Position numbers and translations under genes: made by a program. From NCBI GenBank assembly GCA_964516055.1, contig CAZEYK010000001.1, positions 1 to 51,030 of the forward strand: a stretch of 51,030 nucleotides of DNA. The letters are read 5' to 3'. Positions 9,627 to 51,030 of this stretch are shown here, piece after piece (position 1 is the first letter of the stretch; each line of letters begins with the position of its first letter). Under the pieces are notes generated by a model that did no database searches, had not been told where the DNA came from, and saw only the letters and a program-made list of their open reading frames with translations. Origin of the DNA: an uncultured Gammaproteobacteria bacterium. Lineage in GTDB: Bacteria > Patescibacteriota > Patescibacteriia > Magasanikbacterales > UBA922.

Positions 9627-9726
9627 TCAACAGTCCTTTACAATTCAACACTACGAAAAAAAACACAGATCCATCGGCGTCAGCCAATGCGATCTATACC
9701 CGCCGCAATGCGGCAGGAGTGACACC

Positions 9727-12422: not shown

Positions 12423-12429
12423 AACAACA

Positions 12430-12448
12430 GGGGAGGCAACGCCTCCCC
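12430..12448 (+). other. GC-rich intercistronic hairpin
   Basis: GGGGAGGC (12430-12437), loop AAC, GCCTCCCC (12441-12448), with no following T-run. It lies between island genes 2 and 3. Confidence 0.45.
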
Positions 12449-12466
12449 CCAACAAGGAACACAATC

Positions 12467-14515: not shown

Positions 14516-14540
14516 AGCCTAGGGTTGAGGTCTTCCCCAT

Positions 14541-18275: not shown

Positions 18276-19301
18276 CTAATATAAATCTTCAATAAGAACC
18301 AAAGTATCCTCTTCAATAAATTTTTTAACCTTTTTTCCTAATACTTTATGAACATACCCCGTAGCAAGGCCCTTACCAGGTCGCTTAAATACGATATCAC
18401 TCCTTTCAAGAACTTTACCAACGGGGATATCCTTAGCAGCCACAATACTTTGACTTGCCCATCCCCTTGCAGCAATTATATGATCAACACGATTGGAACT
18501 TGCAGGAAGAATAGATGCTTCAACATCACGAATTTGTTTAACCATTTGCTTTAAATCTTCAGGATCACATGAAACAGGACAATCAAATGATCTTTTATCT
18601 GTTTTATCAAAAGAAAGATGTTTTTCAATAAGTTTTGCACCAAGCGCAACAGCCGCAATAGGAATATGTAAACCAATAGTATGATCGGAATATCCAATAG
18701 GACAATCTAATTGATTCTTTAACTGAGTAATAGTTCCCAAACTATTTATATCAACAGGAGTAGGATAAATAGTATTGCAATGCAACGCGACAATATCAAT
18801 GAGTCCCTCAGATTCCATAATAGAAAGAGAATTATGAATTTCTTCAACCGATTTATGGAGACCAAAAGAAACAATAACAGGCTTACCCCGAGAAGCAACA
18901 TTACGCAAAAAATCATTATTAATACTTTCTCCAGAACCAATCTTAAAAAATGGAATATCTAAATCTTTATCAATAAATTCTAAATCAACTTCCGTATGAG
19001 AAGTAACAAAAAAATCGATATTACGAATTTCACAATATTCCTTCAACATTCGTAAATCATTATATGAAAGTTCTTTATACTTTAATCGACTATACCAATA
19101 AGGATCTACCTTTTTTGAAACAAGTGCTTCCGTCGTTTGTGCTTGAAACTTAATAGCATCAGCACCAGCAGCCATAGCAGCATCTACCTGCCTCTTTGCA
19201 AGTGCAATGTCACCCCAATTTGTTAAACCTCCTTCTGCAACGATGTAGACAGGATATTCTTCACCGATGAAACCGTTACCAATACGTACTTTATTATTCA
19301 T
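18276..19301 (-). CDS. NeuB-family nonulosonic acid synthase (divergent), copy 1
   Basis: YIVAEGGLTNWGDIALAKRQVDAAMAAGADAIKFQ, compared with canonical IAEIGxNHNG. Metal-ligand contexts ALHCNTIYPTP and GYSDHTIG. C-terminal SAF-like IVAAKDIPVGKVLERSDIVFKRPGKG. Confidence 0.75.
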   Translation of the reverse strand: MNNKVRIGNGFIGEEYPVYIVAEGGLTNWGDIALAKRQVDAAMAAGADAIKFQAQTTEALVSKKVDPYWYSRLKYKELSYNDLRMLKEYCEIRNIDFFVTSHTEVDLEFIDKDLDIPFFKIGSGESINNDFLRNVASRGKPVIVSFGLHKSVEEIHNSLSIMESEGLIDIVALHCNTIYPTPVDINSLGTITQLKNQLDCPIGYSDHTIGLHIPIAAVALGAKLIEKHLSFDKTDKRSFDCPVSCDPEDLKQMVKQIRDVEASILPASSNRVDHIIAARGWASQSIVAAKDIPVGKVLERSDIVFKRPGKGLATGYVHKVLGKKVKKFIEEDTLVLIEDLY

Positions 19302-26367: not shown

Positions 26368-27426
26368 TTATATAATATCATCCAAACGCAATAACGTATC
26401 AGCCTTAATATCAACGTTCGTTATCTTTCCTATTACAGTATCTATCAAATTAGGACAAATTCCTGTTCCTGGTCTTTTAATCGTAAGATACTCTGCTTTC
26501 AATACTGTACCAGCTGGAATATCTTTATTTACCACGATACTCTTTCTAGCAACATTAGCAACTTTTAATTCTTCCTCACTCGCCACTTTTTTTGAAGAGC
26601 CAAGTGCTTTCTCTATATTACGAATTGACTTAACCATAGCAATTAATTCAGAAGGCTCCAAAGACATTGCATGATCTGGACCATCCATTGTTTTATCTAA
26701 AGTAAAATGTTTTTCAATACAAACAGCTCCCATAGCAACAGCAGCAATTGAAACCTCTATACCAAGAGTGTGATCAGAATATCCAACAAGTACTCCACAT
26801 GCCTTTTGGATAGTATTAATTGCCCGTAAATGTACATGTTCCATGGGAGTAGGATACAAAGAAGAACAATGCAATACAACAATATCTTGTTTTCCAACCG
26901 CTTTTAAACTAAAAACCATGTTTTTTACTTCCTCAAGGGAGGACATCCCCGTTGAAAGTATCATAGGTTTTCCCTTACTGGCAATATGTAATAAACCTGG
27001 AATATTATTAGCATCACTTGATCCACACTTAAACAAAGGGACATTAACTACTTCATCCAAAAAATCAACATCAGTATTGGAAAATGGTGTAGACAAAAAA
27101 AGAATACCTCGTTCTTCTGCATACTTCTTTAACAATAAATGATCTTCACGCTGAAGTGTCAACCTCTCCAACATAGCGTATTGACTTTCTTTTTTTCCAA
27201 TATTTTTCGTCTGATATTCAGCCTGATCTGCGGACATTGTAACAAGAGTATGAGCAGTAAATGTTTGAAATTTAACAGCATCAACATGAGCAGCAATTGC
27301 AGCATCAATAAGCTTTTTAGCAATAACAATATCACCATTATGGTTTACTCCCGCTTCAGCAATAATAAATACAGGCCCATCAGGAGATATTTTTTTAGAT
27401 CCAACAGAAATAGAAGAAAAAGACAT
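26368..27426 (-). CDS. NeuB-family nonulosonic acid synthase, copy 2 (canonical motifs)
   Basis: VFIIAEAGVNHNGDIVIAKKLIDAAIAAHVDAVKFQTF, VLHCSSLYPTP, GYSDHTLG, and a SAF-like C-terminus. ATG 27426 avoids overlap with the upstream gene. Confidence 0.85.
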   Translation of the reverse strand: MSFSSISVGSKKISPDGPVFIIAEAGVNHNGDIVIAKKLIDAAIAAHVDAVKFQTFTAHTLVTMSADQAEYQTKNIGKKESQYAMLERLTLQREDHLLLKKYAEERGILFLSTPFSNTDVDFLDEVVNVPLFKCGSSDANNIPGLLHIASKGKPMILSTGMSSLEEVKNMVFSLKAVGKQDIVVLHCSSLYPTPMEHVHLRAINTIQKACGVLVGYSDHTLGIEVSIAAVAMGAVCIEKHFTLDKTMDGPDHAMSLEPSELIAMVKSIRNIEKALGSSKKVASEEELKVANVARKSIVVNKDIPAGTVLKAEYLTIKRPGTGICPNLIDTVIGKITNVDIKADTLLRLDDII

Positions 27427-27439
27427 ACAACAATAAATA

Positions 27440-28435
27440 CTAATAAACAAAATCAGGTATCTTTTCAAAGGTATATAAAGCCTTCAAAATATCCCAATCT
27501 TCAAAAAATGTGTACGGGTAAGAAAATTCACCTGACACGGCCGCTAAAAAATGCTGTATTTCCTCTCGATACATATCTTCTGTTGTTTCATATCCAACTT
27601 CACTTTCACCCTTTTGCAAAGATATAATGTCCCATTGACCAGAAGAACTATTATAAACTTTAATTTGATAACTCATCCAATCCCACTCAATAACACCTTC
27701 TTCACACATAATACGTAAAGTACGAAAAGGATATCTTGCTACCACGTCAATAAGAATAGTACCAATAATATTATTGGAAAATTTCACCGAAGCAGCATAC
27801 ACATCATCAGCAGACATTTCCAAATGTGAAACTTTACCCTTTATCCCCAAAATGGAAGAAACTTTTGTATCAAACAAACCAGTTAACCATATCAACTCAA
27901 ATGGTAACATTTCCCTACAGGCACCTGTTTCTTTCTGAGAAAAATATACTTTACGATAATCTTCCCAAGGATGCCAATCAGGGAGATATTGACCCAAATG
28001 ATACGAAAAAGTCAAAGGAGAACCCAAAGTACCTTGAGCCAAAATTTCCTTTATTTTTTTAACAGCCGGAAAATAACGAAAAGTGCACGATGGGGCTGCC
28101 ACAAACGATCCATCTAGAAGACCCAATAATCTTTCATACCCATCATCATGAGTAGTTGCTTCAACAAAAAAATGTTTTTTATTTTTTGCTGCATACAAAT
28201 AATATGTTGAATGATGATTTGGAGGGGTAGAAATAGAAAATATATCAGGATGAACAATATCAACAGCATCAGAAAACGAAGCAAATGTTTTTATGCCATA
28301 TTGTTCCTCAACTTCCTTTCTTCTTTCTTCATTCAAATCAAAACCAAACAGTGAATCTTCATTAACGCCATGAAACAAAAAATTTCTGATTCTTCTTTTT
28401 CCCATTGAGCCTAGGCCTACTTGTAAAATAGTCAT
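27440..28435 (-). CDS. Gfo/Idh/MocA-family NAD(P) oxidoreductase
   Basis: The N-terminal Rossmann motif MTILQVGLGSMGKRRIRN, the length and the domain order are typical of the family. Confidence 0.65.
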   Translation of the reverse strand: MTILQVGLGSMGKRRIRNFLFHGVNEDSLFGFDLNEERRKEVEEQYGIKTFASFSDAVDIVHPDIFSISTPPNHHSTYYLYAAKNKKHFFVEATTHDDGYERLLGLLDGSFVAAPSCTFRYFPAVKKIKEILAQGTLGSPLTFSYHLGQYLPDWHPWEDYRKVYFSQKETGACREMLPFELIWLTGLFDTKVSSILGIKGKVSHLEMSADDVYAASVKFSNNIIGTILIDVVARYPFRTLRIMCEEGVIEWDWMSYQIKVYNSSSGQWDIISLQKGESEVGYETTEDMYREEIQHFLAAVSGEFSYPYTFFEDWDILKALYTFEKIPDFVY

Positions 28436-38340: not shown

Positions 38341-39399
38341 TTAAACAGTTATATATTCCCATTGTAAAATAGTATCTTTAGGGAAATCTTTAGTCACTCG
38401 CTTCCCAATCAACTTATCGGCATAACGTATATCCAAAAATTTAGCAGGAATACCAGAACCAGGACGTTTTGGAATAAGCATATCAAGGGTAAGCATTGTT
38501 CCTGCAGCGATATCTTCGGCAGCGACTACACTGTGATATGCCCAATCTCTAACTACTTGTTCATCTTTAGTAATATTTTTTTCACTACCCAGACTTACAT
38601 CAATTTTTCTTACTCCTTCAGCTAAATCTGCAAGCATGTCTGGTTCAAGAGCAATTTTATGATCAGGCCCATCTTGATCTCGAGATAACGTAAAATGCTT
38701 TTCAATAACTTTAGCCCCCATTGGAATAGACGCATAGGCCGTATAATTATCAACAGTATGATCAGATTGCCCAGCCCACACACCAAATTCTTCCTGCATC
38801 TTTCGAATCCGACCAAGATTAATATGTGAGTAATCCCCTGGTGGATATTCAGACGTACAATTAGTAAGAATCAAATTATCTTTGGCCCCTTCTTCTTCAT
38901 AGACAGCAACAGTCTCAACAATTTCTTCCCATTTGCTCATACCTGTAGAAACAATAACTGGTTTCCCTGTTTCCGCAGAGATTTTCGCCAACTTTCGTTG
39001 CATAGGAAGATTGGTAAGCTCTCCTGAACCAGTCTTAAATGCCTTCACGCCAAGTTCTTGTAAGACATCCACAGCAGCAGGACAAAATGGTGTACATAAA
39101 TATTCGACACCAACTTCTTCACAATAATCCATCACTTCTTTATGCATCTCTCGCGTAAACAAATTTCTTTTCAAAATATCATATAGTGGCCCATCCCACA
39201 TGTTTATAGAACCAGGAACCATTTCAATATCAGGAAGATGTAATTGAAACTTTGCAACATGAACCCCCGCTTTTTTAATCTCGTCAATCATCTTTTTTGC
39301 TGTTTCCACACTCCCATTATGAGAATCGGCAATTTCAGCGATAATCAATGTTGGTGAATCCTCAGAAATAGTATATTGTCCAAAAGTAATTGATTTCAT
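38341..39399 (-). CDS. neuB: NeuB-family nonulosonic (sialic) acid synthase, copy 3
   Basis: LIIAEIADSHNGSVETAKKMIDEIKKAGVHVAKFQ, QSDHT, and SAF-like VVAAEDIAAGTMLTLDMLIPKRPGSG. Confidence 0.8.
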   Translation of the reverse strand: MKSITFGQYTISEDSPTLIIAEIADSHNGSVETAKKMIDEIKKAGVHVAKFQLHLPDIEMVPGSINMWDGPLYDILKRNLFTREMHKEVMDYCEEVGVEYLCTPFCPAAVDVLQELGVKAFKTGSGELTNLPMQRKLAKISAETGKPVIVSTGMSKWEEIVETVAVYEEEGAKDNLILTNCTSEYPPGDYSHINLGRIRKMQEEFGVWAGQSDHTVDNYTAYASIPMGAKVIEKHFTLSRDQDGPDHKIALEPDMLADLAEGVRKIDVSLGSEKNITKDEQVVRDWAYHSVVAAEDIAAGTMLTLDMLIPKRPGSGIPAKFLDIRYADKLIGKRVTKDFPKDTILQWEYITV

Positions 39400-39403: not shown

Positions 39404-40135
39404 TTATGTTAAAAGTTTTTTCATTTTTATAGTGGCAACATCCCAATCATCTGGAGTATCAATATCAAAAGCATATTTTTCATCCATCAAATATCCCTTC
39501 GTTAAATCACCCCATAACGAAGGATCCTCTGTATAAAAATTGGCAACACGAAATGCATAAATAGCCGAATTAATATAATAAGTAGGTGATATATTTTGAT
39601 TTCGATGAATAAAATTTTTTACCTTTGTTCCATCAATAGAAGCAACTAAATCATCTTCCGTAAAAACAAGTGATTTATATGGACTAAAATGAGCAGGGAT
39701 TTTCGATATACCCACAATTGAATCAATATGATTTCCATATTCCTTAATTAATTGAACAACATCTATAACATGCGATGCTTGTCTTCCTGGAGCAGTTGGT
39801 TCAAACAAAACTACCCAATCAGCATTATATTGTTTATTATCACGCATCCACTCAACAGCATGTTTCACAACTTCAAATGATCCAGCAGTATCGGTAGCCA
39901 ACTCAGCGGGTCTCATAAATGGCACATCAATACAATATTCCTTTCCCACAGCAGCAATATCATCGTCATCTGTACTCAAAATAAAGTGATCAAAACAATT
40001 TGCATTTTTACCAACCTCAATACTCCACGCTAACAATGGTTTCCCATGAAATGGTTTAATATTCTTTCCTGGCAATCTTTTTGAATCACCACGCGCAGTA
40101 ATTATTCCTAAAATATTAGGATTTAATTTTTTCAT
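39404..40135 (-). CDS. neuA: CMP-nonulosonic acid synthetase, copy 2
   Basis: ILGIITARGDSKRLPGKNIKPFHGKPLLAWSI. Close paralog of 14638-15348. Confidence 0.8.
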   Translation of the reverse strand: MKKLNPNILGIITARGDSKRLPGKNIKPFHGKPLLAWSIEVGKNANCFDHFILSTDDDDIAAVGKEYCIDVPFMRPAELATDTAGSFEVVKHAVEWMRDNKQYNADWVVLFEPTAPGRQASHVIDVVQLIKEYGNHIDSIVGISKIPAHFSPYKSLVFTEDDLVASIDGTKVKNFIHRNQNISPTYYINSAIYAFRVANFYTEDPSLWGDLTKGYLMDEKYAFDIDTPDDWDVATIKMKKLLT

Positions 40136-41522
40136 ACGTTGTACTAATTACATCAAATAATCTTTCTCCTGCTTTTCCATCAAGTTTATAACAAAACCTT
40201 TCAATTAACTCACGTCGCTCCTTACCAAATTTATCTCCATTTTCAAGAATATCATTAATGCTATTCTTCAATTCATCAGCAGAATATGCTAAATAAGTAG
40301 ATTTAAAACTCAAAATCTCCTTATAATAATCACATACATACCATCTTCTAACACTTTTATATATTGGCAAATCATTTTCCTGTCCATCAAACATAATCAA
40401 TACAACAGGCTTTCCTATAGCCGCCCCATCCAAAGTAAGTGTAGAACACGTATTAATAATAACATCACTATGATACATGCAATTAAAAAAATGTTTCATT
40501 TGATCATAAGAATAATCCCAAGAATCCCTAAATTTCTTCGAAGGATTATTATGAGAATCAACAACAACATCATTTCTATTCAATACAGAAGAAAACTTTT
40601 CATAATCATTCTTATGACAAAAATGTGGTCTAATCAACAGTTGGCTTTCTTCAATAAGAAATCCATTTTTAATAAAATCTACAATAATTTCAGTAATATT
40701 CGAATCTGTTGGGATAACCTTTCCTTCTGATCCAAAAAATATAATACGCTTTTCAGGATCTAACCCCATGTTTTTACAAAAATCTTCTCGTGAAACAATA
40801 TAAGAATCATCACTATAATAATCAAACTGCGGTACACCAATAGTATTAATATTCTTTTCTTTATACCCTTGCAAATGTATCATCTGATGCTTCATAAAAG
40901 GACTCCATACGACAAGGGTATCAACTTGAATAGGAAACAATGCCTTAGACGGATTATCCCAAGTCTTTGGCATTCCAATAGTTTTGATACCACTTAACTT
41001 AGCTGCCTTAATAAAGGCAGCATCTTCAGACTCCATAATACTAGTAGAAAAAACCAAATCTAGTTTATATTCTTCAAAATATTTTCTATATTTGCTAACA
41101 ACTTCCTTATCAATAAGAAGACCATTAATATATATCAAAAAAGATTTATAAAATGACAACTTAGACAAAGGCAAAAAAACTATTGCTAACAAAATATATT
41201 TAATATTATGAAAAAAATTTAAAAACCAATTACGTTTGCTAACATCAACATAATCATAAAGTGCAAGACGTTTCGTGTTCAAATTAAAAACAGAAAATTT
41301 ATTTATCTTCAACACCACACTCTGTAAATAACCATACTTTTCAGGATAAAGTGGTAAAAATTTAACATTATCACCACCAAACTCAGAAATAAACCTTTCA
41401 TCCTTATATGCTGGTGTAAATATAACAATTTGTTCAGCACTTTTCTTAAGTTTCTCAAAAAAAACATTTTGCAAAATATTTCTTGCGGTACCTCCGCGTG
41501 ATATGGTAATGGCTATCTTCAT
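40116..41522 (-). CDS. Uncharacterised GT-B-like protein, paralog A
   Basis: Shares its motifs with 35438-36817 (see that entry). Overlaps the neuA-like start by 20 nt. Confidence 0.5.
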   Translation of the reverse strand: MKIAITISRGGTARNILQNVFFEKLKKSAEQIVIFTPAYKDERFISEFGGDNVKFLPLYPEKYGYLQSVVLKINKFSVFNLNTKRLALYDYVDVSKRNWFLNFFHNIKYILLAIVFLPLSKLSFYKSFLIYINGLLIDKEVVSKYRKYFEEYKLDLVFSTSIMESEDAAFIKAAKLSGIKTIGMPKTWDNPSKALFPIQVDTLVVWSPFMKHQMIHLQGYKEKNINTIGVPQFDYYSDDSYIVSREDFCKNMGLDPEKRIIFFGSEGKVIPTDSNITEIIVDFIKNGFLIEESQLLIRPHFCHKNDYEKFSSVLNRNDVVVDSHNNPSKKFRDSWDYSYDQMKHFFNCMYHSDVIINTCSTLTLDGAAIGKPVVLIMFDGQENDLPIYKSVRRWYVCDYYKEILSFKSTYLAYSADELKNSINDILENGDKFGKERRELIERFCYKLDGKAGERLFDVISTTYEKIKS

Positions 41523-41722: not shown

Positions 41723-42463
41723 TTAATAATATAATGAAAAATCATTTTTCATAACCTCTCGTGCATGTATCAAATCTTCTTGAGTATCTATTTCAAGCCA
41801 TTCATACCCACTAATATCACCAATATAAAAGCCCACATGATCTGTATCCACGATCTTCTGCATAACATGTTCACTTACCGCTTGTTCAAAATCTTTTGCA
41901 ATTACGTCCTTAATAGTTTGCTTATATAATGGAAGATACTGTTCAGGACAATAGGTAATACCCACATACCCTAAACTATAATCTTGCAATGTTTTTGATA
42001 CGAATTTCAATTTATCACCTGAATCAGATGTTTTAACCTTCATATCATCATCAGTTAATTTTCTATCATTATCAGTGAATATTAAAAATTTATTTCCCAA
42101 TTGCTTCGCCATTTTATCTGCGATTTCCTTTCGAAAAATATGATCAGCATGATACACTACACATGAAGTATCAACCAAATCTAGACCACACTGCAAACTA
42201 AAAATATTACCCAAACGAAATTTTTTATTTTCTACAACTTCAACATTAGCATCAATATCTTTTACAACAGAGCGGAGTTTATCAATTTGAAAACCACCTA
42301 CAATAATGATTCTATCAGCACCAAGCGAATGTAAAAAACGAATACCATATTCTATAAGAGGTTTTCCTTCAATTTCAACCAAAGGTTTTGGTGTATCGAT
42401 AGTAATATCTTTTAATCTAGTACCCAAACCTGCGGCCATTACTACTGCTGTCAAATTATTCAT
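41723..42463 (-). CDS. Sugar-phosphate or alcohol-phosphate nucleotidyltransferase (LicC/IPCT-like)
   Basis: AVVMAAGLGTRLKDITIDTPKPLVEIEGKPLIEYGIRFL and C-terminal WLEIDTQEDL. ATGA overlap with the upstream 929-aa gene. Confidence 0.75.
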   Translation of the reverse strand: MNNLTAVVMAAGLGTRLKDITIDTPKPLVEIEGKPLIEYGIRFLHSLGADRIIIVGGFQIDKLRSVVKDIDANVEVVENKKFRLGNIFSLQCGLDLVDTSCVVYHADHIFRKEIADKMAKQLGNKFLIFTDNDRKLTDDDMKVKTSDSGDKLKFVSKTLQDYSLGYVGITYCPEQYLPLYKQTIKDVIAKDFEQAVSEHVMQKIVDTDHVGFYIGDISGYEWLEIDTQEDLIHAREVMKNDFSLYY

Positions 42464-45249
42464 AATTCTTTTAAAAAATCAGTGAATAACATTTTATTAG
42501 CAACAACGTACTTATATGATTCAAAAAACTGAACACCGTATTTAACGGCTAATTCACCATCAAACCATCTCATCGGCCAAACAAATGCTTCCCGAAGTAA
42601 CCGAAAACGTAATGCATCGAAAAAATATTTTTTTTCACTATCAGTAAATGAACGAATTGATTGGTAACCTTTCAAAAAAGAAGTAATTAAATTAACTTGA
42701 GGAATTCCATTATTAAAAGCCATCCAGATAAGCGGAGTCATAACATCAAATAACAAAATTCCCCGATAACAATTATTAAAATCAATAAAATGCAATTGTC
42801 CATCAGAATCTACAATAATATTTTCAGGTTTAACATCTTGATGAGTAGTTCCTATAGGTAATTCCACATCAAAATTCATCTGAGAAATTTCATTTCGTAT
42901 ATAAGAAACAAACTCATTAACATTTGGAAAATTCCTATTCATAACACTACCAGCATATTCGTCAACAAAAGACACAATATCATTATATTCCCACGTTTGT
43001 TTAGGTACCGATTGTTTCAGATCTTGCAAAATCACATGCATACGCCCCAATAATACTCCAACATCATGCAATTGTTCCTCTGTGGCAGAAGATAATATTT
43101 CACCAGGAATATATGTAAACAACGCATATTGTTTATTATTCATCGAAGTACCATATGTTTGTGCATTCAATAGTGGATGGATATAAGGACAAGGAAATTG
43201 TTGTAAAGCTAATGCAGTAAGAATAGAAAGTTCATAGGCAACTTGTTCCTGACTATCAAAATTATATTGCTTAAACAAATACAATCCCTCTGTAGAGTTC
43301 ACTAAATAATTAGTATTAACAACACCCATAGTTATTTCATCTACTTTTGTAGGATGAATACCATACTCAGATTGAACAATATGCGAAATATCCAAGGTAG
43401 CATAACTACGTCGAATAGCTTCTTCTAAATGGATATCATTACAAGTAACAAAATAATAATTATCGTTATGCCAAATAGATCCAATACGATCAACAAGTAC
43501 AAATCTCGCTTGATTTCCATGATACTTTTTACTAAATTTCATCGAATCCAAAATGGCTTGAAAATCTATATCATCTGGAATAGTATGAGGTAAATTATAC
43601 TTTTGTAACATAGCAATTTGTTTTTCTACAGTGTCATCATCACATATGCCCAACACTCGTGAAAGTTCAGCAGAAACACGCATTCCAATAGCAACAGACT
43701 CCCCATGTAATAGTCTATACCCAGATAAATGTTCTACCGCATGCCCAACTTCATGACCATACTGATTAACAAGCGCAATTTTTTCTTCATCATAATCTTG
43801 AGAAATAGAATCAACCTTTAATGTAGATGCTCTACGAACAACTTCTTCAAGAAAATCTAAATTTTTAATTTCCCCATTATATTCATCAAAAAATGTATAA
43901 AAATCAACATCCTGAGCAAAAGCTTGTTTAAGACATTCAGCAAGACCATCATAAACATATTTATCTTCAAGAGTCATTAAAGTAGCAGGATCAACGATTA
44001 CCTTTAATGGACTATAATAACTCCCAAGCATATTTTTTCCCAAAGTACCATTCACTCCCTGCTTTAACGCAATAGCAGCGTCACTTTGAGACAAAACAGT
44101 AGTAGGAAAACTAACAAATCCAATACCTCTATAAATTGTTGATGCAAGAAAACCGGCCAAATCTTTTACGACTCCCCCACCGACAGACATAATAATAGAT
44201 TTTTTATCAATTCCCTGAGAAATCATATAATCAGCAAGTCTAATATATTCAGAAATACTTTTTGTATTTTCACCTGGATCAACCAATATTTTTTCTATAC
44301 GATAGCCTAGACCTTTAAATTGCTTATAAATATTCTCCCCATAAAATTTATCAATATTTCTATCAACGACAATATAATGGGGAGAATAAAATGATTCATG
44401 AGGAATAATTTCATATTGATCAATATGATCAAGTATTCCTCTTTCTATAACAACATCAAAACGAAGCTTTTTATCATAATCATACACCGTTGACGGAATT
44501 AACGCTGTATAACTTGGGGTAGGATGATCTTCAGAAACACCAACATTTCTACAAAGAAAAGATTCTGCACGAATCAAATCAACCGGTAAATTGATGTCAA
44601 ACCATCTATGTTTAAATTCTGCAGAAAAAATATCATTTGCATTTCCATACTTTGCAAGCACATCACTACAAGTACGTGTGGTGTCATCAACAAAACCCAT
44701 TAAATCAAAATATCCGTTCAAACTTAAACGATATAATCCAGCTTCATACAATGGCAAACCTGTTGAACCGGTATCTTCATAAATAAGTTTTCCATCAACA
44801 AGATGAACATGAACAGTCGCCCCAGAGTCAACACCATACATAGCTCGAGCACCCACCAAAACTTCAACATCACCTTCAAAAGTAAAAGCAGACAGTGGGC
44901 TTTCCTGAAAAACAAGATCACACATACTCACAAAAAAATCATTAGCGATGAATCCACTATCGATAAGTGTTGAAATAGACTTCATTGCTGAAATCATATT
45001 AGCATCATGATCAATTTCAATGTAAGTAATATTCTTTTTTTCAAATAATTCTTTTTTTATCAACGAATCATATTTTCTAATAACAATAACAATATTTTCT
45101 ACTCCCATTTCTTCATAACGCTTTACACTACGCATGATCAATGTTTCTCCTCCAACCTTAACTAACGGTTTAGGTGTTTCAAAAATATCTAACCTTCTGC
45201 CAAGACCACCTGCCAAAATTACTCCTATATTAATATTTTTTGATGACAT
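42460..45249 (-). CDS. Tri-domain fusion: nucleotidyltransferase + 3-dehydroquinate-synthase-like sugar-phosphate cyclase + APH/choline-kinase-like kinase
   Basis: aa 1-235 (45249-44545): GVILAGGLGRRL..TPKPLVKVGGETLI. aa ~245-612 (44517-43414): SVGGGVVKDLAGFLAS..FPTTVLSQSDAAIALKQGVN..GKNMLGSYYSP..GLAECLK..YGHEVGHAVEH..LLHGESVAIGM. aa ~620-929 (43392-42463): THQDVKPENIIVDSDGQLHFIDFNN. Confidence 0.8.
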   Translation of the reverse strand: MSSKNINIGVILAGGLGRRLDIFETPKPLVKVGGETLIMRSVKRYEEMGVENIVIVIRKYDSLIKKELFEKKNITYIEIDHDANMISAMKSISTLIDSGFIANDFFVSMCDLVFQESPLSAFTFEGDVEVLVGARAMYGVDSGATVHVHLVDGKLIYEDTGSTGLPLYEAGLYRLSLNGYFDLMGFVDDTTRTCSDVLAKYGNANDIFSAEFKHRWFDINLPVDLIRAESFLCRNVGVSEDHPTPSYTALIPSTVYDYDKKLRFDVVIERGILDHIDQYEIIPHESFYSPHYIVVDRNIDKFYGENIYKQFKGLGYRIEKILVDPGENTKSISEYIRLADYMISQGIDKKSIIMSVGGGVVKDLAGFLASTIYRGIGFVSFPTTVLSQSDAAIALKQGVNGTLGKNMLGSYYSPLKVIVDPATLMTLEDKYVYDGLAECLKQAFAQDVDFYTFFDEYNGEIKNLDFLEEVVRRASTLKVDSISQDYDEEKIALVNQYGHEVGHAVEHLSGYRLLHGESVAIGMRVSAELSRVLGICDDDTVEKQIAMLQKYNLPHTIPDDIDFQAILDSMKFSKKYHGNQARFVLVDRIGSIWHNDNYYFVTCNDIHLEEAIRRSYATLDISHIVQSEYGIHPTKVDEITMGVVNTNYLVNSTEGLYLFKQYNFDSQEQVAYELSILTALALQQFPCPYIHPLLNAQTYGTSMNNKQYALFTYIPGEILSSATEEQLHDVGVLLGRMHVILQDLKQSVPKQTWEYNDIVSFVDEYAGSVMNRNFPNVNEFVSYIRNEISQMNFDVELPIGTTHQDVKPENIIVDSDGQLHFIDFNNCYRGILLFDVMTPLIWMAFNNGIPQVNLITSFLKGYQSIRSFTDSEKKYFFDALRFRLLREAFVWPMRWFDGELAVKYGVQFFESYKYVVANKMLFTDFLKEL

Positions 45250-45258: not shown

Positions 45259-46278
45259 TTAATACGTTACAATACATTTAAGAGTCTTCCTTTCCCTAGT
45301 TGCAACAAAAGCATCACTTATATTGTTAAGATGATAAATATATTCCTTAGAAATATAATATTCATGATTAAGCATACCTGCATGCCATTGTTCAATAACA
45401 ACATCATGCGCACTAGCTTCATCGTACAACTCCCCATTAAAAAATTGTATATCTCCTTGAGCTTTTATCACAGGTATACGATATTCATGATAAGCATTTA
45501 GCCCATATAAACCAATTTTCCCTTTATCACCTAAAAATGGGATAACTGCATCCAAATTTAAACAATCTCCTATAGTGTCAATAATTAAATCAAATTGAGT
45601 ATTATTATCATACAATGTACCAGCTACATTTTCATTAGTATACGGAATATATAAATTAGCACCTGCAGATAAAAATAATTTTTCACGCAAAGAACTACCA
45701 ATAACCGTAATCCTAAATGACTTATTCCGAGTATGCTCCAAAAAAGCCATAGCATTAGCTCCACTCCCAATGATACAGACTGATTGCCCCGAAGAAACAT
45801 CCATTCTGGTTAAAAAAGAAAGAGTTTCTCGCCAAGTAATAATCATCGTAGATGCAACAGGATCAACCCATTCAGGTAAAACCCTATGTACCCTATAACA
45901 ATCCCATTGAGATTGAGGGAGTGCATCATCTCGCATAGCTTGCCAGTCAGTAGCAACAGAATATTCAGCAAATGCTCCATACGCAATAGAATATGGACTA
46001 TCAGAAGGAAAAACATTGAACACACGAGTCACAACATCTCCCAGATTAATATGTCTTACTTTTTTCCCAATACCAATAACTTTTCCAATTCCTTCATGAC
46101 CAAGCACCGTTGGATAAAAAATTTTTTTATAATGTAAACCATCAATAATATGAGTATCCGTACCACTACAAATTCCTGTCGCAATAGTTTTACATAAAAC
46201 ATCATAATCACCAACAATAGGTTCCGGTAAATCACGGACCTCAAGGTTGCCAGGAGTAACTACAACAGCAGCTTTCAT
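45259..46278 (-). CDS. Zn-dependent medium-chain alcohol/polyol dehydrogenase
   Basis: GICSGTDTHI (Cys ligand), VLGHEGIGKV, and NAD motif VCIIGSGANAMAF. The four-Cys structural-zinc loop appears to be absent. Confidence 0.75.
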   Translation of the reverse strand: MKAAVVVTPGNLEVRDLPEPIVGDYDVLCKTIATGICSGTDTHIIDGLHYKKIFYPTVLGHEGIGKVIGIGKKVRHINLGDVVTRVFNVFPSDSPYSIAYGAFAEYSVATDWQAMRDDALPQSQWDCYRVHRVLPEWVDPVASTMIITWRETLSFLTRMDVSSGQSVCIIGSGANAMAFLEHTRNKSFRITVIGSSLREKLFLSAGANLYIPYTNENVAGTLYDNNTQFDLIIDTIGDCLNLDAVIPFLGDKGKIGLYGLNAYHEYRIPVIKAQGDIQFFNGELYDEASAHDVVIEQWHAGMLNHEYYISKEYIYHLNNISDAFVATRERKTLKCIVTY

Positions 46279-46284: not shown

Positions 46285-47055
46285 TTACTTATTATACAAT
46301 TTTTGAGAATAAATAAGATAAAAATGTTTCAAAAATAAAGACACGTAAAAAAACATATATCCTATCGCAAAAAACATCACTCCATAGTCAACAATATGAA
46401 ACAATGAGCACACAAACAATACAAAAAAAACACCAGTTGAACTCAAAAAATTCTTATTCACTCGTGCCATAATGACATATATCGTACTTGCAAAACTTCG
46501 CGATACAATTACAGGGATACTCTCACCAAAAACAGCATCGTTCTTCTTTTGTTCAATAAGTTGTTGAAGCTGCAAAATCCGAGCATCAAGTAATCGATAC
46601 TCAAGTTTAGTAATACTTGCGATAGCCCCACATAAAAGAAATATTACCCCATATCCTTGGACATATAAAGCCACCCCCAAAATGAACGGAGCAAACCCAT
46701 ATTGAACATCATGACTAACAGGTTCCGTATATACACCACCAAGTAAACTCTTTTGTTCACGAAATCGTGCAACTTCTCCATCACACCCATCAAACACAAT
46801 AGATAAAAAGATAATCAAAGAACCAAGGATATTCATGAAAGTAGTATCAAAAAAGAACATACCTATCCCAATAAAAAAGGTAACAACGCTTAATATAGTG
46901 ATATTATTAGGAGTAATAGCTGTTTTCAAAAATATTTTCGTACAATAAATAGAAAAAATTCGAGAAAACAATCCCACCCAACTTTCACGTTTTGGATCGG
47001 GTGCTGTTTTTTGACAAATTGCACGAAGCTCTTTTATAGAATAATTTTTTTTCAT
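46285..47055 (-). CDS. CDP-alcohol phosphatidyltransferase-family membrane protein
   Basis: Polytopic membrane protein. Signature FDGCDGEVARFREQKSLLGG..., with the distal acidic positions of the motif imperfect. ATG 47055 is preferred over the track's TTG at 47103. Confidence 0.7.
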   Translation of the reverse strand: MKKNYSIKELRAICQKTAPDPKRESWVGLFSRIFSIYCTKIFLKTAITPNNITILSVVTFFIGIGMFFFDTTFMNILGSLIIFLSIVFDGCDGEVARFREQKSLLGGVYTEPVSHDVQYGFAPFILGVALYVQGYGVIFLLCGAIASITKLEYRLLDARILQLQQLIEQKKNDAVFGESIPVIVSRSFASTIYVIMARVNKNFLSSTGVFFVLFVCSLFHIVDYGVMFFAIGYMFFYVSLFLKHFYLIYSQKLYNK

Positions 47056-47126
47056 AATGTTATGGAAACACACGCAGAAAATTTTCTTAATGATAAATAA
47101 CAAAAAGTTAATATCCCCTATAAAAA

Positions 47127-48260
47127 CTATGAACGAATAAATGACAAAATACGTGATGCCCTACTATCCCAAGAAAATGAACATCCCTTTTCATACGCTG
47201 CTAAAGAGATAGTCTTTCCTAAAAAATTATCAGTAAGCAATGTTGTCACTTTCTTAGCCAAATCTACCGAATCATCAGGAGAACAAAGAAGTGCATTCTT
47301 CTCATCAACCAGATATGCCGAAAAACTCTCAATATCACTCGCAACAATTGGTACACCAGACACCATATACTCAAATAATTTAATAGGTGTGGTATAAGAG
47401 GCAGAACGTTCTTCTTTTGCCGTATTTGGAAGTACCAACACATCAGCAGATTTAATAAATCTAATAATATCATGGTGCTTCACAAACGGGTGAACATATA
47501 CATTATTAATACCTTTTTCTTCTATATACTTTTCAACAAGTTCACGATCCTGAGGAATTCCACCAATCAAACAAACATTTGCATCGATGAATGCAGCAGC
47601 ATCAATCAAAGTGTAAATTCCCTTCCATTTATAAAAATGTCCAACATACAAAACGACAGGACGCTTTTCAGAAAAAGAAAATGCTGATTGCCATACACGC
47701 ACATCTCGAGACACTCCCTCAAATTCTTTTACATCTACCCCATTGGGGGCTACTAATATAGCATCTAACGGCACATCATGCTGCTTATACAAAGACAACA
47801 AATTTTCTGCAACAACCACTTTTTTTGTAATGTTGCGCACAAACAAGAAATATAATGAGCGAAACCGTTTCTTTGGTTCATGATCTTCAAACACCACCAT
47901 TTTTCCAAATATACTCAACAAAAAGCATACTGTCAGCTCGCGCGAATAAATCACATCATATTTACCAAACAATCCATAAAAAAATGCAAAAATGGTAAAA
48001 CTTACTCGTTGCAAGAAAAAATACATCTTATGAAATGGTGTTTCCAAAAAAGAAAAAACGTTAGGGACAAACGTCATCGGAATATTATCTTCTACATGAT
48101 AAAATGAACGATAACCATCCGTAATATGATTCCGTCGTCGAGGCAACAAAAGCCGAACATTTTCCCCCGCACGGATAAAAGCTTCAATCGTTTTCACAAT
48201 CTGAAGCCCATGAGCTTTTTCAGTAGGAATGCGTGAATTAGCAATATATAAAATATTCAT
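47127..48260 (-). CDS. GT4-family (GT-B) glycosyltransferase
   Basis: MNILYIANSRIPTEKAHG and the E-x7-E region EERSASYTTPIKLFEYMVSGVPIVASD. Confidence 0.8.
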   Translation of the reverse strand: MNILYIANSRIPTEKAHGLQIVKTIEAFIRAGENVRLLLPRRRNHITDGYRSFYHVEDNIPMTFVPNVFSFLETPFHKMYFFLQRVSFTIFAFFYGLFGKYDVIYSRELTVCFLLSIFGKMVVFEDHEPKKRFRSLYFLFVRNITKKVVVAENLLSLYKQHDVPLDAILVAPNGVDVKEFEGVSRDVRVWQSAFSFSEKRPVVLYVGHFYKWKGIYTLIDAAAFIDANVCLIGGIPQDRELVEKYIEEKGINNVYVHPFVKHHDIIRFIKSADVLVLPNTAKEERSASYTTPIKLFEYMVSGVPIVASDIESFSAYLVDEKNALLCSPDDSVDLAKKVTTLLTDNFLGKTISLAAYEKGCSFSWDSRASRILSFIRS

Positions 48261-48261
48261 A

Positions 48262-48516
48262 CTAATCAGGCCACTTGTTTATAACACCGGTAACCTTTTC
48301 CTTTGCCTGTAAATAAACATCTACTGATTTCTCTTCAAGCTCGGGAGAAATTAATCGCAAAATTTCTTTCCCCAAAATACGATATTGCCCACCTACTTTA
48401 TTGGCACGCAAAATCCCCTTCTTGAGCAGACGTTTGATGGTACTTTCACTAACCTTAAGGAGTATTTGTGCTTCACTCGTTGTATATACAGCATGCTGTT
48501 TAATTTCTTGTTCCAT
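48262..48516 (-). CDS. Excisionase-family (MerR-like HTH_17) DNA-binding protein
   Basis: 84 aa. Sequence YTTSEAQILLKVSESTIKRLLKKGILRANKVGGQYRILGKEIL. It ends 1 nt before the GT4 start. Confidence 0.75.
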   Translation of the reverse strand: MEQEIKQHAVYTTSEAQILLKVSESTIKRLLKKGILRANKVGGQYRILGKEILRLISPELEEKSVDVYLQAKEKVTGVINKWPD

Positions 48517-48524
48517 ATACTAAA

Positions 48525-48562
48525 AGTATACCAACAGTGTCACAAGGTGTCAACAGGTGTCA
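48525..48562 (-). promoter_or_regulatory. sigma70-like promoter overlapped by three 10-bp-phased direct repeats (putative operator)
   Basis: On the minus strand: TTGACA (48553-48548), 17-nt spacer, TATACT (48530-48525), then only 8 nt to ATG 48516. On the plus strand GTGTCA occurs at 48537, 48547 and 48557, in GTGTCAcaagGTGTCAacagGTGTCAacaa. Confidence 0.55.
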
Positions 48563-48586
48563 ACAATACACAAATATTAGCCAATT

Positions 48587-49399
48587 TTAGACAATCAACT
48601 GTCTAAAACGATAATACGATATAACAATATGATAACGAATATACCGCCAAACTTGTTTAGGAGGTAATGAATGCGAAAAACCATGACGAACATAAATAAA
48701 AAATGAAACAAAAGAAATCTTAACTGCTCTTGCCAAATTTTTAAAAACAGAAATAAATATAACCTTCCTTTTACCTTTTGCCGATTCCCCAGTGAGAAAC
48801 TTTTTACGAGCGATAGACAAATAAAAATTATCTTTTTTTATACATTTTTTAAAATCAGGAGTATATCCATAAAAGCACTCCTTCATATCCATAAGTTCAA
48901 TATCTTCTGGAACTATTAATTTTTCATGAACCGGTTTATTTTTATTCCAATGTATCCCACCTTTTTTATTATACAAACGAATATAAGGAACTTTTTGAGC
49001 AAAAGAATATTTAACAATCCTGTTATCAATAATTGGCCAAAATGAAATTCTAAACGCTTTTTTTTCATCAGGACTTTTTTTTAAATTATTACGAATTTCT
49101 TCTATTAATCCATCAGACAAAAACTCATCAGAATCAAGCATCAATAGCCAATCACACTTTGCCAAACTTGCTGATTTAATTCTCATGGCGCCAAAATTCT
49201 CAATCATTACATTAGATTCATCTGTATCAACCTGCTTGAATACAGGTACACCAAAATTTTTAGCTATTTCCAAAGTTCTATCAGTACTATTTCCATCCAA
49301 CAAAAAAACATCTTGAAAATCTTTCAAACTATCCAAACATCTTTCCAAAGTATTTTCAGAATTCAACGTCAAAAGCGGAACCGAACAATTAATTTTCAT
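48587..49399 (-). CDS. GT2-family glycosyltransferase
   Basis: CSVPLLTLNSENTLERCLDSL..LLDGNSTDRT..LMLDSDEF (DxD-type motif). Confidence 0.75.
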   Translation of the reverse strand: MKINCSVPLLTLNSENTLERCLDSLKDFQDVFLLDGNSTDRTLEIAKNFGVPVFKQVDTDESNVMIENFGAMRIKSASLAKCDWLLMLDSDEFLSDGLIEEIRNNLKKSPDEKKAFRISFWPIIDNRIVKYSFAQKVPYIRLYNKKGGIHWNKNKPVHEKLIVPEDIELMDMKECFYGYTPDFKKCIKKDNFYLSIARKKFLTGESAKGKRKVIFISVFKNLARAVKISFVSFFIYVRHGFSHSLPPKQVWRYIRYHIVISYYRFRQLIV

Positions 49400-49432: not shown

Positions 49433-50149
49433 TTACTCATTAAGTTTACACACCCAAAATATTTCTCCGCAATATTCAGGCAAATTACGTCCCACTTCAA
49501 ACAAAGCATCACAATATTCATTAGACAAATTTTCCATTTCTTTATTTGGCAAAAATTTTAATAAAATACCTGATTTATTAACTATCTCCAATCCACTCTT
49601 CGCCAATAATTCACCTAAAGAATTAAAATCAAAATATCTCTGGTGCCCAACTTCATGATCTCTTTCATTAAGATCATAAATAGTACTAATAAACCCCATT
49701 TCTTTTCCAATTTGACGATGAATAGAATTAGCATTGGGCACTATTATTACTACATACCCTTCTGGTGTCATGTAATTTTTTACTTTATTCAACATAAGCA
49801 AAGGATCATGGAGATGTTCCAGTATGTCAATCAAAAAAATCAAATCCATTTTTTGTTCAGGAAAATCATTCTTTTCAACATCCAACTCAATAAAATGAAA
49901 TTTGGAATCACTCTGAAATTTTTCCTTTGCCTGATCCAAATATTTTAGATCAGCATCAATACAAAAAACACTTGTACAATTTTTTATCATGTCAGAGACA
50001 TCATTTATCTTTTCTATTACATCTCCAGGGCCACAACCAACGTCAGCAATAGATTGAATTTTAATGCTACTAAAAAAATCAACTATAGCTTTGGCCCTGT
50101 ATTTTCCCATGACAGCATTAAAATCTTCTTTATATTGATTGGTAATCAT
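49433..50149 (-). CDS. Class I SAM-dependent methyltransferase
   Basis: Motif I IADVGCGPGDVIE. Post-I/II region DLIFLIDILEHLHDP..PEGYVVIIVPN. Confidence 0.75.
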   Translation of the reverse strand: MITNQYKEDFNAVMGKYRAKAIVDFFSSIKIQSIADVGCGPGDVIEKINDVSDMIKNCTSVFCIDADLKYLDQAKEKFQSDSKFHFIELDVEKNDFPEQKMDLIFLIDILEHLHDPLLMLNKVKNYMTPEGYVVIIVPNANSIHRQIGKEMGFISTIYDLNERDHEVGHQRYFDFNSLGELLAKSGLEIVNKSGILLKFLPNKEMENLSNEYCDALFEVGRNLPEYCGEIFWVCKLNE

Positions 50150-51030
50150 ACATTCAAAATTTTTTTTACATTTATTAATTTATCAGCTAAAAAATCTGGA
50201 TTACATTTTTCAAGAAAAATTTTATCACGAACTCCATCACATACCAAAATTGATTTCATTTCCAATTTTCTGGCAACATCACAGTCATCATTGGTATCTC
50301 CAACCATCCAAAAACCTTTATATTCATCTTCTCTATACTCATCTATTATAATCTGTTCTTTAGAAAAGGATCCACTTATCAATATTTTAAAAAAATATTC
50401 TTCAATTTCTAATCTTTTGATTTCATCTAAGCATGCTTTTTTATCCTTTCTTTTTGTAACCAAAACAATATTAAATTTCTCTGACATTTTTTTTAACAAA
50501 TCCAAAGAACCATACTTTAACGTATCCTGTTTTAAATATTTTTTCAACTCTATACGTTTGGTCCTCTCTTCGAGATAATCATTAATACTATTTTTTGGTA
50601 TATTTGTTTTCAAAATTATTGTACTTTCAGATTCACCACTCCTTTTTAAAAGAAGATATTGTTCCTTATTAATAGGCTTAAAATTATAAATTTTAGATAA
50701 ATCCAAATGCAATTGATACCACCTATCACTTACATCAACCAACGTACCATCAAAATCAATATATATATTTGGCTTTCCAGCCATTTTTTGAATACCCCCT
50801 AAAAGAGAATATTTCTGTTTAAAACCAAAACACTTCTTAATTTTTTTATTATCAAAAACCAAACTACTATTATTCTTATTTTCTAACTCTAAAAACTTAA
50901 TATATGAAGAGGATTTAAAAACCTTAATAACTGTTTCAGCCAACTTCTTTATTGCAATACCTTGTCCACTAGAAACATTAAACATTCCTACTCTAAAATT
51001 AAATATAGCAGAAACAATAACATCAACAGC
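50146..51030 (-). CDS. Partial ORF: C-terminal end of an SDR epimerase/dehydratase fused in frame to a HAD-superfamily phosphatase domain (5' end beyond the window)
   Basis: The frame is open from the right edge (AVDVIVSAIFNFRVGMFNVSSGQGIAIKKLAETVIK..CFGFKQKYSLLGGIQK). It continues without a stop into MAGKPNIYIDFDGTLVD (HAD motif I), LVTKR and VGDTNDD. An internal ATG at 50784 could also start a stand-alone HAD protein. Confidence 0.6.
   Translation of the reverse strand, partial: AVDVIVSAIFNFRVGMFNVSSGQGIAIKKLAETVIKVFKSSSYIKFLELENKNNSSLVFDNKKIKKCFGFKQKYSLLGGIQKMAGKPNIYIDFDGTLVDVSDRWYQLHLDLSKIYNFKPINKEQYLLLKRSGESESTIILKTNIPKNSINDYLEERTKRIELKKYLKQDTLKYGSLDLLKKMSEKFNIVLVTKRKDKKACLDEIKRLEIEEYFFKILISGSFSKEQIIIDEYREDEYKGFWMVGDTNDDCDVARKLEMKSILVCDGVRDKIFLEKCNPDFLADKLINVKKILNV

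Follow-up and report, generated by a model that had tools for sequence, protein, structure and literature searches.

A nucleotidyltransferase–cyclase–kinase fusion protein of Candidatus Magasanikbacteria and a candidate pathway to CDP-activated cyclitols

Sugar-phosphate cyclases are known mainly from the shikimate pathway and from antibiotic and sunscreen secondary metabolism. [quoted passage not shown] Pathways of the type in which a cyclase, a kinase and a nucleotidyltransferase (NT) lead to nucleoside diphosphate (NDP)- or CDP-activated cyclitols are already known from validamycin and acarbose and from di-myo-inositol phosphate (DIP) biosynthesis. The reduction of 2-deoxy-scyllo-inosose to quercitols by a reductase has been documented (PMC7348060), and a route involving CDP-inositol and a CDP-alcohol transferase was proposed for the inositol lipids of Bacteroidetes (PMC9246714). 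Here we describe a gene for a 929-aa protein that joins an NT, a DHQS-like cyclase and a small-molecule kinase, together with the gene cassette around it, in a stretch of 51,030 nt (contig CAZEYK010000001.1 of assembly GCA_964516055.1; from here: the window) from a bacterium of the candidate phyla radiation (CPR).

Taken as a whole, the data are best explained if the fusion protein and its cassette make a CDP-activated cyclitol for the cell envelope, following a lineage-specific gene fusion, a reading to which we assign a probability of about 0.6. What matters biologically is the cassette as a whole and an uncharacterized cyclase clade rather than the fusion, an evolutionary event of an ordinary kind that has so far been seen in one population. 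No description of an NT–DHQS-like fusion or of a CDP-deoxycyclitol pathway was found in the searchable literature; with most subscription papers outside reach, this is absence of evidence only.

The tri-domain gene and its origin

The gene and its parts are arranged as follows (ORF, open reading frame; pLDDT, predicted local distance difference test; AF2, AlphaFold2; IPCT, CTP:inositol-1-phosphate cytidylyltransferase).

42460..45249, minus strand: tri-domain ORF (P0001), NT–cyclase–kinase; ATG-initiated, 929 aa, 0 internal stops in the ORF listing
44542..45249, minus strand, aa 1–236: N-terminal NT domain, IPCT/LicC-like; Pfam and PDB matches, pLDDT mostly >90
44491..44541, minus strand, aa 237–253: NT/cyclase linker; pLDDT 72–81, without regular secondary structure, poorly conserved in the family alignment
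43396..44490, minus strand, aa 254–618: sugar-phosphate cyclase domain; DHQS-superfamily Pfam matches, pLDDT >90
43381..43413, minus strand, aa 613–623: fusion junction RRSYAT/LDISH, cut between T618 and L619; from the comparison with locus L010
42463..43395, minus strand, aa 619–929: C-terminal APH-fold small-molecule kinase domain; Pfam APH, AF2, Foldseek

The original prediction, made from the DNA letters and their ORFs, had read this gene as a single uninterrupted frame with intact signature motifs. Both points hold. Pfam recognizes NTP_transf_3/NTP_transferase at aa 9–115 (3e-12; 47 bits against a cut-off of 27), DHQ_synthase at aa 321–431 (4e-33, 114 bits) with DHQS_C at aa 435–575 (3e-29, 102 bits), and APH at aa 638–843 (4e-21). 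Every quoted motif was located in the protein: GGLGRRL (aa 14–20) and TPKPLV (aa 25–30) in the NT, GGGVVKDLAGF (aa 357–367), LAECLKQ (aa 436–442), YGHEVGHAVEH (aa 497–507) and LHGESVAIGM (aa 514–523) in the cyclase, and HQDVKPEN (aa 803–810) and FIDF (aa 821–824) in the kinase. The metal ligands of the cyclase had been placed in AECLK, GHAVEH and LHGESVAIGM; this assignment stands for E438 and H515, but the first His is H499 in YGH, the equivalent of H271 in DHQS, and H503 of GHAVEH corresponds to H275. The two domain junctions, expected at about 44530 and about 43400, coincide with the modeled linker (44491–44541) and with the cyclase/kinase cut (43393–43398).

Structure prediction agreed with the three-domain layout. 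The AF2 model of the full protein showed a confident NT (aa 1–236) and a confident cyclase (aa 254–618) with the short linker 237–253 between them; it was weak in the kinase segment, which was therefore modeled separately with its own alignment (pLDDT 95, predicted template modeling score (pTM) 0.92). The nearest solved relatives of the NT domain are archaeal IPCT (2xme, 8e-8) and IPCT/DIPPS (4mnd). Its loop, catalytic Lys and metal-binding Asp positions (G15, G17, R19, L20, K27, D111 and D218) are invariant or nearly so in the family alignment, and the domain probably uses CTP together with a cyclitol phosphate. In Foldseek comparisons the kinase model matched homoserine kinase II (TM 0.79), N-acetylhexosamine 1-kinase NahK (TM 0.80–0.81), amicoumacin kinase, the aminocyclitol kinase APH(9) and the choline kinase LicA, and no protein kinase occurred among its top 50 matches. 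H803, D805 and N810 are invariant in the alignment of its homologs, and D823, the Asp of FIDF, is conserved in at least 90% of them. An assignment to homoserine kinase type II (ThrB_alt) was rejected, as the scores (100 bits against 271 for NF003558, 78 bits against 256 for TIGR00938) are far under the cut-offs. The model thus identifies the C-terminal domain as a predicted APH/eukaryotic-like small-molecule kinase fold, and judged by their conserved residues all three domains are predicted to be catalytically intact.

At least 23 contigs, which stem from nine samples and three pipelines (ENA/MEGAHIT, JGI, Logan), encode exactly P0001. Nine loci taken from different samples in the ENA, JGI and Logan assemblies show 0–1 nt differences over the 2790-nt gene, with flanks 99.98–100% identical to the window, and NCBI holds partial copies from a Candidatus Magasanikbacteria metagenome-assembled genome (MAG). 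The fusion-bearing contigs thus represent one near-clonal Candidatus Magasanikbacteria (CPR) population that was sampled repeatedly rather than a number of lineages. The reading frame through the fusion is the same in independent read sets and with three assemblers, and it is kept in a second allele of 929 aa (S195G).

The closest relative, L010 (58% identity), indicates how the junction came about. There, the cyclase gene ends with SYTV* and its stop overlaps the kinase start (MNIEE...) via ATGA. The window reads SYAT-LDISH in frame, with T618 as the counterpart of the final residue of the stand-alone cyclase gene and L619 (TTG, 43393–43395) at the position of the kinase Met1 of L010; the junction has no linker and lies outside any homopolymer. 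The tri-domain form arose by loss of this ATGA stop/start overlap between adjacent NT–cyclase and kinase genes, yielding an in-frame junction. One might suspect instead a sequencing or assembly error that erased a stop or a frame offset between the two genes, since the kinase is a separate gene in all 17 other kinase-bearing loci, L010 carries its ATGA overlap precisely at the junction and all fusion contigs come from a single near-clonal population. Such an error would have had to recur identically across the contigs, samples and pipelines just mentioned, the junction is away from homopolymers, the step from overlap to in-frame fusion needs several changes rather than one miscalled base, and the second allele likewise keeps the frame. 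We therefore regard an artifact as extremely improbable; the tri-domain fusion is a genuine, recent, single-lineage event on a common two-domain family.

That two-domain family is widespread. A word-indexed search returned 74 clusters (90% identity) of a two-domain NT–cyclase protein of ~620 aa, with three domains only in the query's own cluster, and in an exhaustive phmmer (HMMER) scan of 1.84 billion representatives P0001 alone spanned residues 1–929 and no other NT–cyclase–APH protein was found. The architecture had been described as one not recognized from any characterized protein; none is known to have it, and the search did not show it to be common. The statement that three normally separate enzymes were joined needs amendment: the three-domain frame is genuine, but the NT–cyclase fusion is the normal state in this family and the kinase alone was added. 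Among GTDB species representatives there are 206 NT–cyclase relatives (one genome per species), and the neighborhood counts given below cover the 80 best loci of these. They belong to Patescibacteria, many Myxococcota (including the cultured Lujinxingia vulgaris and a Haliangium MAG), some Gammaproteobacteria and one Cytophagia MAG. The APH kinase is a separate gene in 17/17 other kinase-bearing loci among the 80, and all kinase homologs found are stand-alone proteins of ~310 aa.

Class assignment of the cyclase domain

The best PDB matches of the cyclase domain are DHQS (5eks, 1e-48), DOIS (2d2x, 2e-35), ValA (4p53, 9e-31) and DDGS (5tpr, 6e-26). Its N and C Pfam domains, Glu/His/His metal ligands, Gly-rich NAD motif and phosphate-binding residues assign it to the sugar phosphate cyclase (DHQS-like) superfamily. 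With the aroB equivalog model TIGR01357 it scored 284.3 bits, below the cut-off of 305. Class fingerprints were worked out empirically, from plasmid genes named by PGAP and from PDB alignments, including two solved DHQS structures; for the active-site numbering and the residue roles we assume those of A. nidulans DHQS. At 14 positions, with the residue after K152 in brackets, the fingerprints are (S7P, sedoheptulose 7-phosphate):

DHQS: R D K[T/V] N E K K R L N H H H K
DOIS: R D K[Q] N E K K G L E H H H N
S7P cyclases: R D K[T] N E K M x V D H P H x
EboD: R D K[T/N] N E K H S L D H H H K/Q
The window's family: R D K[Q] N E K K [A/G/S/E/D] x Q H H H K

The corresponding residues in the window are R374, D390, K396, Q397, N406, E438, K441, K478, A492, N495, Q496, H499, H503, H515 and K574. 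Positions involved in metal binding, catalysis and phosphate binding are invariant in 73 family sequences (E438, H499, H515, GGGVVKDLAGF, R374, K396, N406, H503 and K574). The equivalent of DHQS Arg264, which in the A. nidulans structure presumably binds the carboxylate of 3-deoxy-D-arabino-heptulosonate 7-phosphate (DAHP), is never Arg in the family (73/73; A492 in the window), and the equivalent of Asn268 is Gln in 69/73 members (Q496). This R...N pair, part of the motif RxxLNxGH, is present in both aroB sequences and in the two solved DHQS structures. Invariant phosphate, metal and catalytic residues together with the lost Arg264 equivalent point to a phosphate elimination of the DHQS type, but not on DAHP; the substrate would lack the DAHP carboxylate and would most likely be a hexose 6-phosphate, as in DOIS.

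In a neighbor-joining tree (numpy distances) the family was placed beside DOIS with a bootstrap of 29–39%. We assign the cyclase, from its residue pattern, to an uncharacterized clade distinct from dehydroquinate synthase, with the fingerprint closest to that of DOIS. The middle domain had been called DHQS-like, which is right for the fold; the defining DHQS features fail at Arg264 and Asn268 and in the model score, and the nearest fingerprint is that of DOIS. Could the domain nevertheless be an ordinary shikimate-pathway 3-dehydroquinate synthase fused to unrelated enzymes? Its similarity is highest to AroB-type DHQS (5eks, 3qbd, 1dqs), the top PDB and NCBIfam matches are DHQS and aroB, both have the same metal ligands and the same Gly motif for NAD binding, and 11/14 classical DHQS active-site positions are identical in the window's cyclase. 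Nevertheless, the family is without equivalents of Arg264, Leu267 and Asn268, it remains under the TIGR01357 cut-off, and no other shikimate gene occurs among the neighbors scanned in the window (14.6–51 kb plus four upstream genes; the window only, not the whole genome). The context is one of glycan synthesis, with a reductase, a kinase, an NT and a CDP-alcohol transferase as conserved partners. An ordinary DHQS is therefore scarcely credible. The S7P-cyclase fingerprint (four PGAP-named members with K250→M, N268→D and H275→P) does not fit either, as the window's family has K, Q and H at these positions.

Conserved cassettes and the proposed pathway

The fusion gene belongs to a conserved five-gene cassette whose members share the minus strand. 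The genes next to the fusion are listed below (MDR, medium-chain dehydrogenase/reductase).

45259..46278, minus strand: Zn-dependent (MDR) alcohol dehydrogenase (Zn-ADH), 339 aa, proposed inosose ketoreductase; Pfam ADH_N, adjacent in 9 relatives
46285..47103, minus strand: membrane CDP-alcohol phosphotransferase, AF2299/DIPPS-like, 256–272 aa; Pfam, NCBIfam, PDB 4o6m (1e-10) and 4mnd
41723..42463, minus strand: second, free nucleotidyltransferase (NT2), LicC/IPCT-like, 246 aa; PDB LicC 1jyk (7e-15) and IPCT 2xme
40116..41522, minus strand: TagF-like CDP-alcohol:polymer phosphotransferase, candidate CDP-alcohol consumer; Pfam Glyphos_transf
47127..48260, minus strand: GT1-family glycosyltransferase flanking the cassette; Pfam, homologs near the cassette in several relatives at ≤55% identity

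Across the relatives, three cassette types were distinguished (SDR, short-chain dehydrogenase/reductase).

Type A: CDP-alcohol phosphotransferase, Zn-ADH, NT–cyclase, APH, NT2; window and CPR relatives
Type B: as type A, with an SDR directly after the cyclase replacing Zn-ADH; CPR, Gammaproteobacteria and Cytophagia MAGs
Type C: NT–cyclase, SDR, PfkB-family kinase; Myxococcota, 50 loci

The reductase partner is a Zn-ADH in 9 and an SDR in 61 of the 80 loci, the kinase partner an APH in 17 and a PfkB in 50. Two proteins extend this series: P0120 (711 aa) carries the same cyclase subfamily behind an N-terminal GHMP (HddA-like) sugar kinase, and P0224 (795 aa) behind an N-terminal aldo-keto reductase (AKR). 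The NT–cyclase–SDR read-through of locus L026, described below, is another independent fusion that fits this logic. Three reductase families (Zn-ADH, SDR, AKR) and three kinase families (APH, PfkB, GHMP) are thus repeatedly tied to one cyclase subfamily, and this non-homologous displacement is the main evidence for a pathway from cyclase via ketoreductase and kinase to NT. The kinase would accompany the family because the cyclase removes the phosphate of its substrate, so that a kinase is needed before the NT can act. NCBIfam models run on the displaced partners (SDR, PfkB, GHMP, AKR) gave no hint of the substrate.

NT2, whose start overlaps the stop of the fusion gene by 4 nt, stands beside the NT–cyclase gene wherever the APH kinase is found with enough flanking DNA among the 80 loci. 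The TagF-like gene recurs within ≤10 kb of the cassette in many type A and B loci. Orthologs of the CDP-alcohol phosphotransferase were found next to 18 NT–cyclase genes (e.g. L010, L021 and L064), all with the same strictly conserved motif variant DGxDGEVAR-x9-G-x2-[YF]-x-EP[VIL]SHD (in the window DGxDGEVAR...EPVSHD).

Based on homology, conserved residues and gene association, five steps can be proposed. The cyclase would use NAD+ and a metal on a neutral sugar phosphate, most likely a hexose 6-phosphate, eliminate the phosphate and release a keto-cyclitol (inosose), whose ketone the adjacent Zn-ADH would reduce to a (deoxy)cyclitol. The C-terminal kinase domain would then re-phosphorylate a ring hydroxyl, and the N-terminal NT and/or NT2 would join the cyclitol phosphate with an NTP, probably CTP, to a CDP-cyclitol. 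Finally, the AF2299/DIPPS-like membrane transferase, possibly also the TagF-like enzyme, would hand the cyclitol phosphate over to an acceptor of the surface-glycan cluster, either a lipid or a glycan. The order cyclase, kinase, NT had been anticipated from the domain functions and agrees with the comparative genomics, but it omitted the ketoreductase step, provided next door by Zn-ADH and by a Zn-ADH or an SDR in the relatives counted above. The compact metabolic channel suggested at the same time is not implied, for the reductase is a separate polypeptide: an intermediate has to leave the fusion protein and come back to it, unless the ketone itself is what the kinase phosphorylates. The fusion fixes a 1:1:1 stoichiometry and the proximity of three of the four soluble steps; by itself it is no demonstration of channeling.

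Several observations weigh against this proposal. In 69/73 family members the equivalent of DOIS Glu243 is Gln, and the chemistry may differ from that of DOIS; the placement as a sister of DOIS has a bootstrap of only 29–39%, and the substrate may be glucose 6-phosphate, mannose 6-phosphate or another sugar phosphate. The motif of the phosphotransferase is non-canonical, with E-x4-D instead of D-x3-D (canonical DGx2ARx8Gx3Dx3D). A conserved transferase or other conserved neighbor was looked for beside the type C module of Myxococcota and not found, and the fate of the product may differ between lineages. That the reductase acts before the kinase is part of the proposal, and the kinase may act first. 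Finally, cassettes A and B contain two paralogous NTs, of which NT2 together with the kinase could serve another alcohol as a LicA/LicC-like pair.

In this last alternative the alcohol would be different, for instance an amino alcohol, the fusion would reflect co-expression only, and phosphorylation of the cyclitol, if it occurs, would fall to another enzyme. It would account for LicC being the best solved relative of NT2 (7e-15), for the match of the kinase fold to LicA and for the constant co-occurrence of APH and NT2. But where APH and NT2 are absent, a PfkB kinase holds the same operon position beside NT–cyclase and SDR (50 loci), P0120 joins a GHMP kinase directly to a cyclase of this subfamily, and the kinase of the window is fused to the NT–cyclase, not to NT2, which together makes the alternative improbable. 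A second one is a C7-cyclitol pathway as for validamycin and acarbose, in which S7P is cyclized, phosphorylated and nucleotidylated to an NDP-carbasugar (valienol-like), a pseudo-sugar donor for glycosyltransferases. The same enzyme families occur there, namely a DHQS-like cyclase, a cyclitol dehydrogenase of the Zn-ADH type, a cyclitol kinase and an NT (PMC9200736), and GT1 and GT2 genes flank the cassette of the window. However, the window's family lacks the S7P-cyclase substitutions and branches away from these cyclases in the tree, the validamycin/acarbose-type kinases are ROK-type (ROK genes flank the examined cyclases) and not APH or PfkB, the NT is IPCT/LicC-like, and the conserved partner is a CDP-alcohol phosphotransferase. 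A C7 pathway is therefore doubtful at best.

If the CDP-cyclitol proposal holds, one may tentatively go further. The family could start a MIPS-independent, primary-metabolism-like route to a CDP-activated deoxy-cyclitol, e.g. a quercitol-type deoxyinositol made from glucose 6-phosphate via an inosose. In CPR bacteria, Myxococcota and some Proteobacteria this cyclitol would supply the phospho-cyclitol head group of envelope lipids or glycans, or it would be an osmolyte. In that route, the protein of the window would be a natural "Rosetta stone" with three of the four soluble steps in one polypeptide, and it would make a handy single construct covering them. A distinct cyclase clade hard-wired to an NT, with a reductase and a kinase always at its side, is present in at least 206 species-level genomes; in minimal-genome CPR bacteria it lies within envelope-glycan clusters. 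If the proposal is true, it would mean a widespread bacterial route to a nucleotide-activated carbocyclic "pseudo-sugar" or deoxy-inositol for the surface, new head-group chemistry for the almost uncharacterized CPR envelopes and a new enzymatic source of NDP-carbasugars for glyco-engineering.

Two further architectures of the cyclase subfamily were noticed. P0105 (832 aa) has an N-terminal PaaK/DVU_1553-like AMP-dependent ligase, which hints at a further, acylating variant of the pathway. In locus L026 (1052–3207 of the Patescibacteria MAG contig JBDRCJ010000020.1) the NT–cyclase ORF runs into an SDR without a stop (...KGRKEEKVMAKNIIVTGGSKGIGKAI...), a different three-domain fusion that ends at the contig edge in a single MAG. 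Tri- and tetra-domain fusions suggested for Myxococcota by long stop-to-stop ORFs were discarded as artifacts of high GC content, leaving L026 (CPR) as the only real cyclase–SDR read-through.

The surrounding glycan cluster and related systems

The cassette lies within a surface-glycan cluster of ~37 kb with three NeuB/epimerase/CMP-transferase sets, an ABC exporter, a KpsC/S-like gene and CysDN. Its further features are:

18276–19301, 26368–27468 and 38341–39399, minus strand: NeuB-type nonulosonic-acid synthase genes (together within 18276–39399), each with a UDP-GlcNAc 2-epimerase gene nearby, and CTP_transf_3 cytidylyltransferase genes too
17327–18235, minus strand: CysD-like PAPS_reduct protein, 302 aa
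15356–17323, minus strand: 655-aa protein with a CysN-type GTPase (aa 13–416) and a second PAPS_reduct domain (aa 463–630)
9700–14520, plus strand: GC island of 4.8 kb (56–62% GC within a region of 33–40% GC), on the strand opposite to all neighbors
9727–11409, in the GC island: Ser/Thr protein kinase
11406–12422, in the GC island: TPR-like protein
12467–14515, in the GC island: FGE-sulfatase/MopE-motif protein
~48260–48590: 84-aa HTH_17 (excisionase-like) protein called between GT1 and GT2
50146–51030, right edge: part of a 502-aa epimerase/dehydratase and HAD-phosphatase fusion

For a CPR genome, three NeuB sets mean that a great deal is invested in sialic-acid-like sugars. The usual fusion partner of CysN is APS kinase, and a PAPS_reduct partner is unusual; the CysDN genes and the FGE-sulfatase of the island suggest glycan sulfation. 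The GC island splits the glycan cluster between UDP-glucose dehydrogenases and a CMP-sugar transferase. A chimeric assembly is unlikely for the island, as the same context was found in four further loci from separate assemblies, and horizontal acquisition is more likely than a chimeric join; an rRNA operon as the cause of the high GC content was likewise dismissed, because an Rfam scan of the window found no RNA families. At ~40479–40485 the TagF-like gene has a T7/T6 homopolymer polymorphism between samples: T7 encodes an intact 468-aa TagF-like protein (window, L001, L003, L004 and L007), T6 yields pieces of 368 and 92/105 aa (L002, L005 and L006). Either a sequencing error in the homopolymer or slipped-strand switching that turns a surface-polymer enzyme on and off could lie behind it.

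This setting bears on another explanation, in which the cassette is a MIPS-independent analog of the IPCT/DIPPS osmolyte pathway and yields a compatible solute that is soluble and resembles DIP (a di-cyclitol phosphate or a like compound). IPCT and AF2299/DIPPS are the nearest relatives of the NT and the membrane transferase, the three-gene module of Myxococcota has no transferase or glycan genes nearby, and some of the MAG names for that module suggest saline sources. In the window and in many CPR and gammaproteobacterial loci, however, the cassette is found among GT1, GT2 and TagF-like genes and an ABC exporter, and the HAD-domain gene (50146–50985), though four genes away, was not found near the cassette in any relative. 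We consider a soluble osmolyte unlikely and prefer the envelope-directed CDP-cyclitol.

Compared with the DIP pathway of hyperthermophiles (2xme, 4mnd) and AF2299 (4o6m), an IPCT-like NT is paired with a CDP-alcohol phosphotransferase in both systems, a pair conserved in 18 loci here with the ...EPVSHD motif variant, and IPCT, DIPPS and AF2299 are the best structural relatives of the fused NT, NT2 and the membrane enzyme. The window, however, has no MIPS gene, possessing a cyclase, a reductase and a kinase instead, and its cassette has two NTs and a mostly envelope-glycan context.

With LicA/LicC (choline kinase and CTP:phosphocholine cytidylyltransferase) the cassette has in common that an APH-fold or sugar kinase feeds an NT to produce a CDP- or NDP-alcohol for surface polymers. 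The combination of Zn-ADH and NT presumably follows the TarJ/TarI (CDP-ribitol) pattern, and HldE, a kinase–NT fusion, is a precedent for the covalent linkage of these two activities. In contrast to the cassette, LicA/LicC, TarI/TarJ and HldE have substrates that are not cyclitols and include no cyclase.

The validamycin and acarbose systems (ValA/AcbC, cyclitol kinase, Zn-ADH-type dehydrogenase, ValB/AcbR) follow the same logic, in which the phosphate is removed by the cyclase and re-installed by the kinase, and the NT forms an NDP-carbasugar (PMC9200736). Their cyclases take S7P and have a different fingerprint, the kinases are ROK-type, the products are secondary metabolites, and none of the enzymes is known to be fused. 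EboD (DEIS) from a complete ebo operon has K250→H, R264→S and N268→D, a fingerprint that does not fit the window's family, and it branches with the S7P cyclases, far from that family in the tree; no ebo genes were found in the window.

DOIS (BtrC; 2d2x) is the nearest clade in the neighbor-joining tree, though with a low bootstrap. Both have the same fold and NAD+/metal core, K-Q at the catalytic Lys, a small residue where DHQS carries Arg264, and the sequence x-YGH. The Glu of EYGH in DOIS, which we take to be Glu243 of BtrC, is Gln here, and the position of DHQS Lys356 is Lys here and Asn in DOIS. Whereas DOIS is found in aminoglycoside clusters, the window's family is fused to an NT and occurs in envelope and CDP-alcohol contexts.

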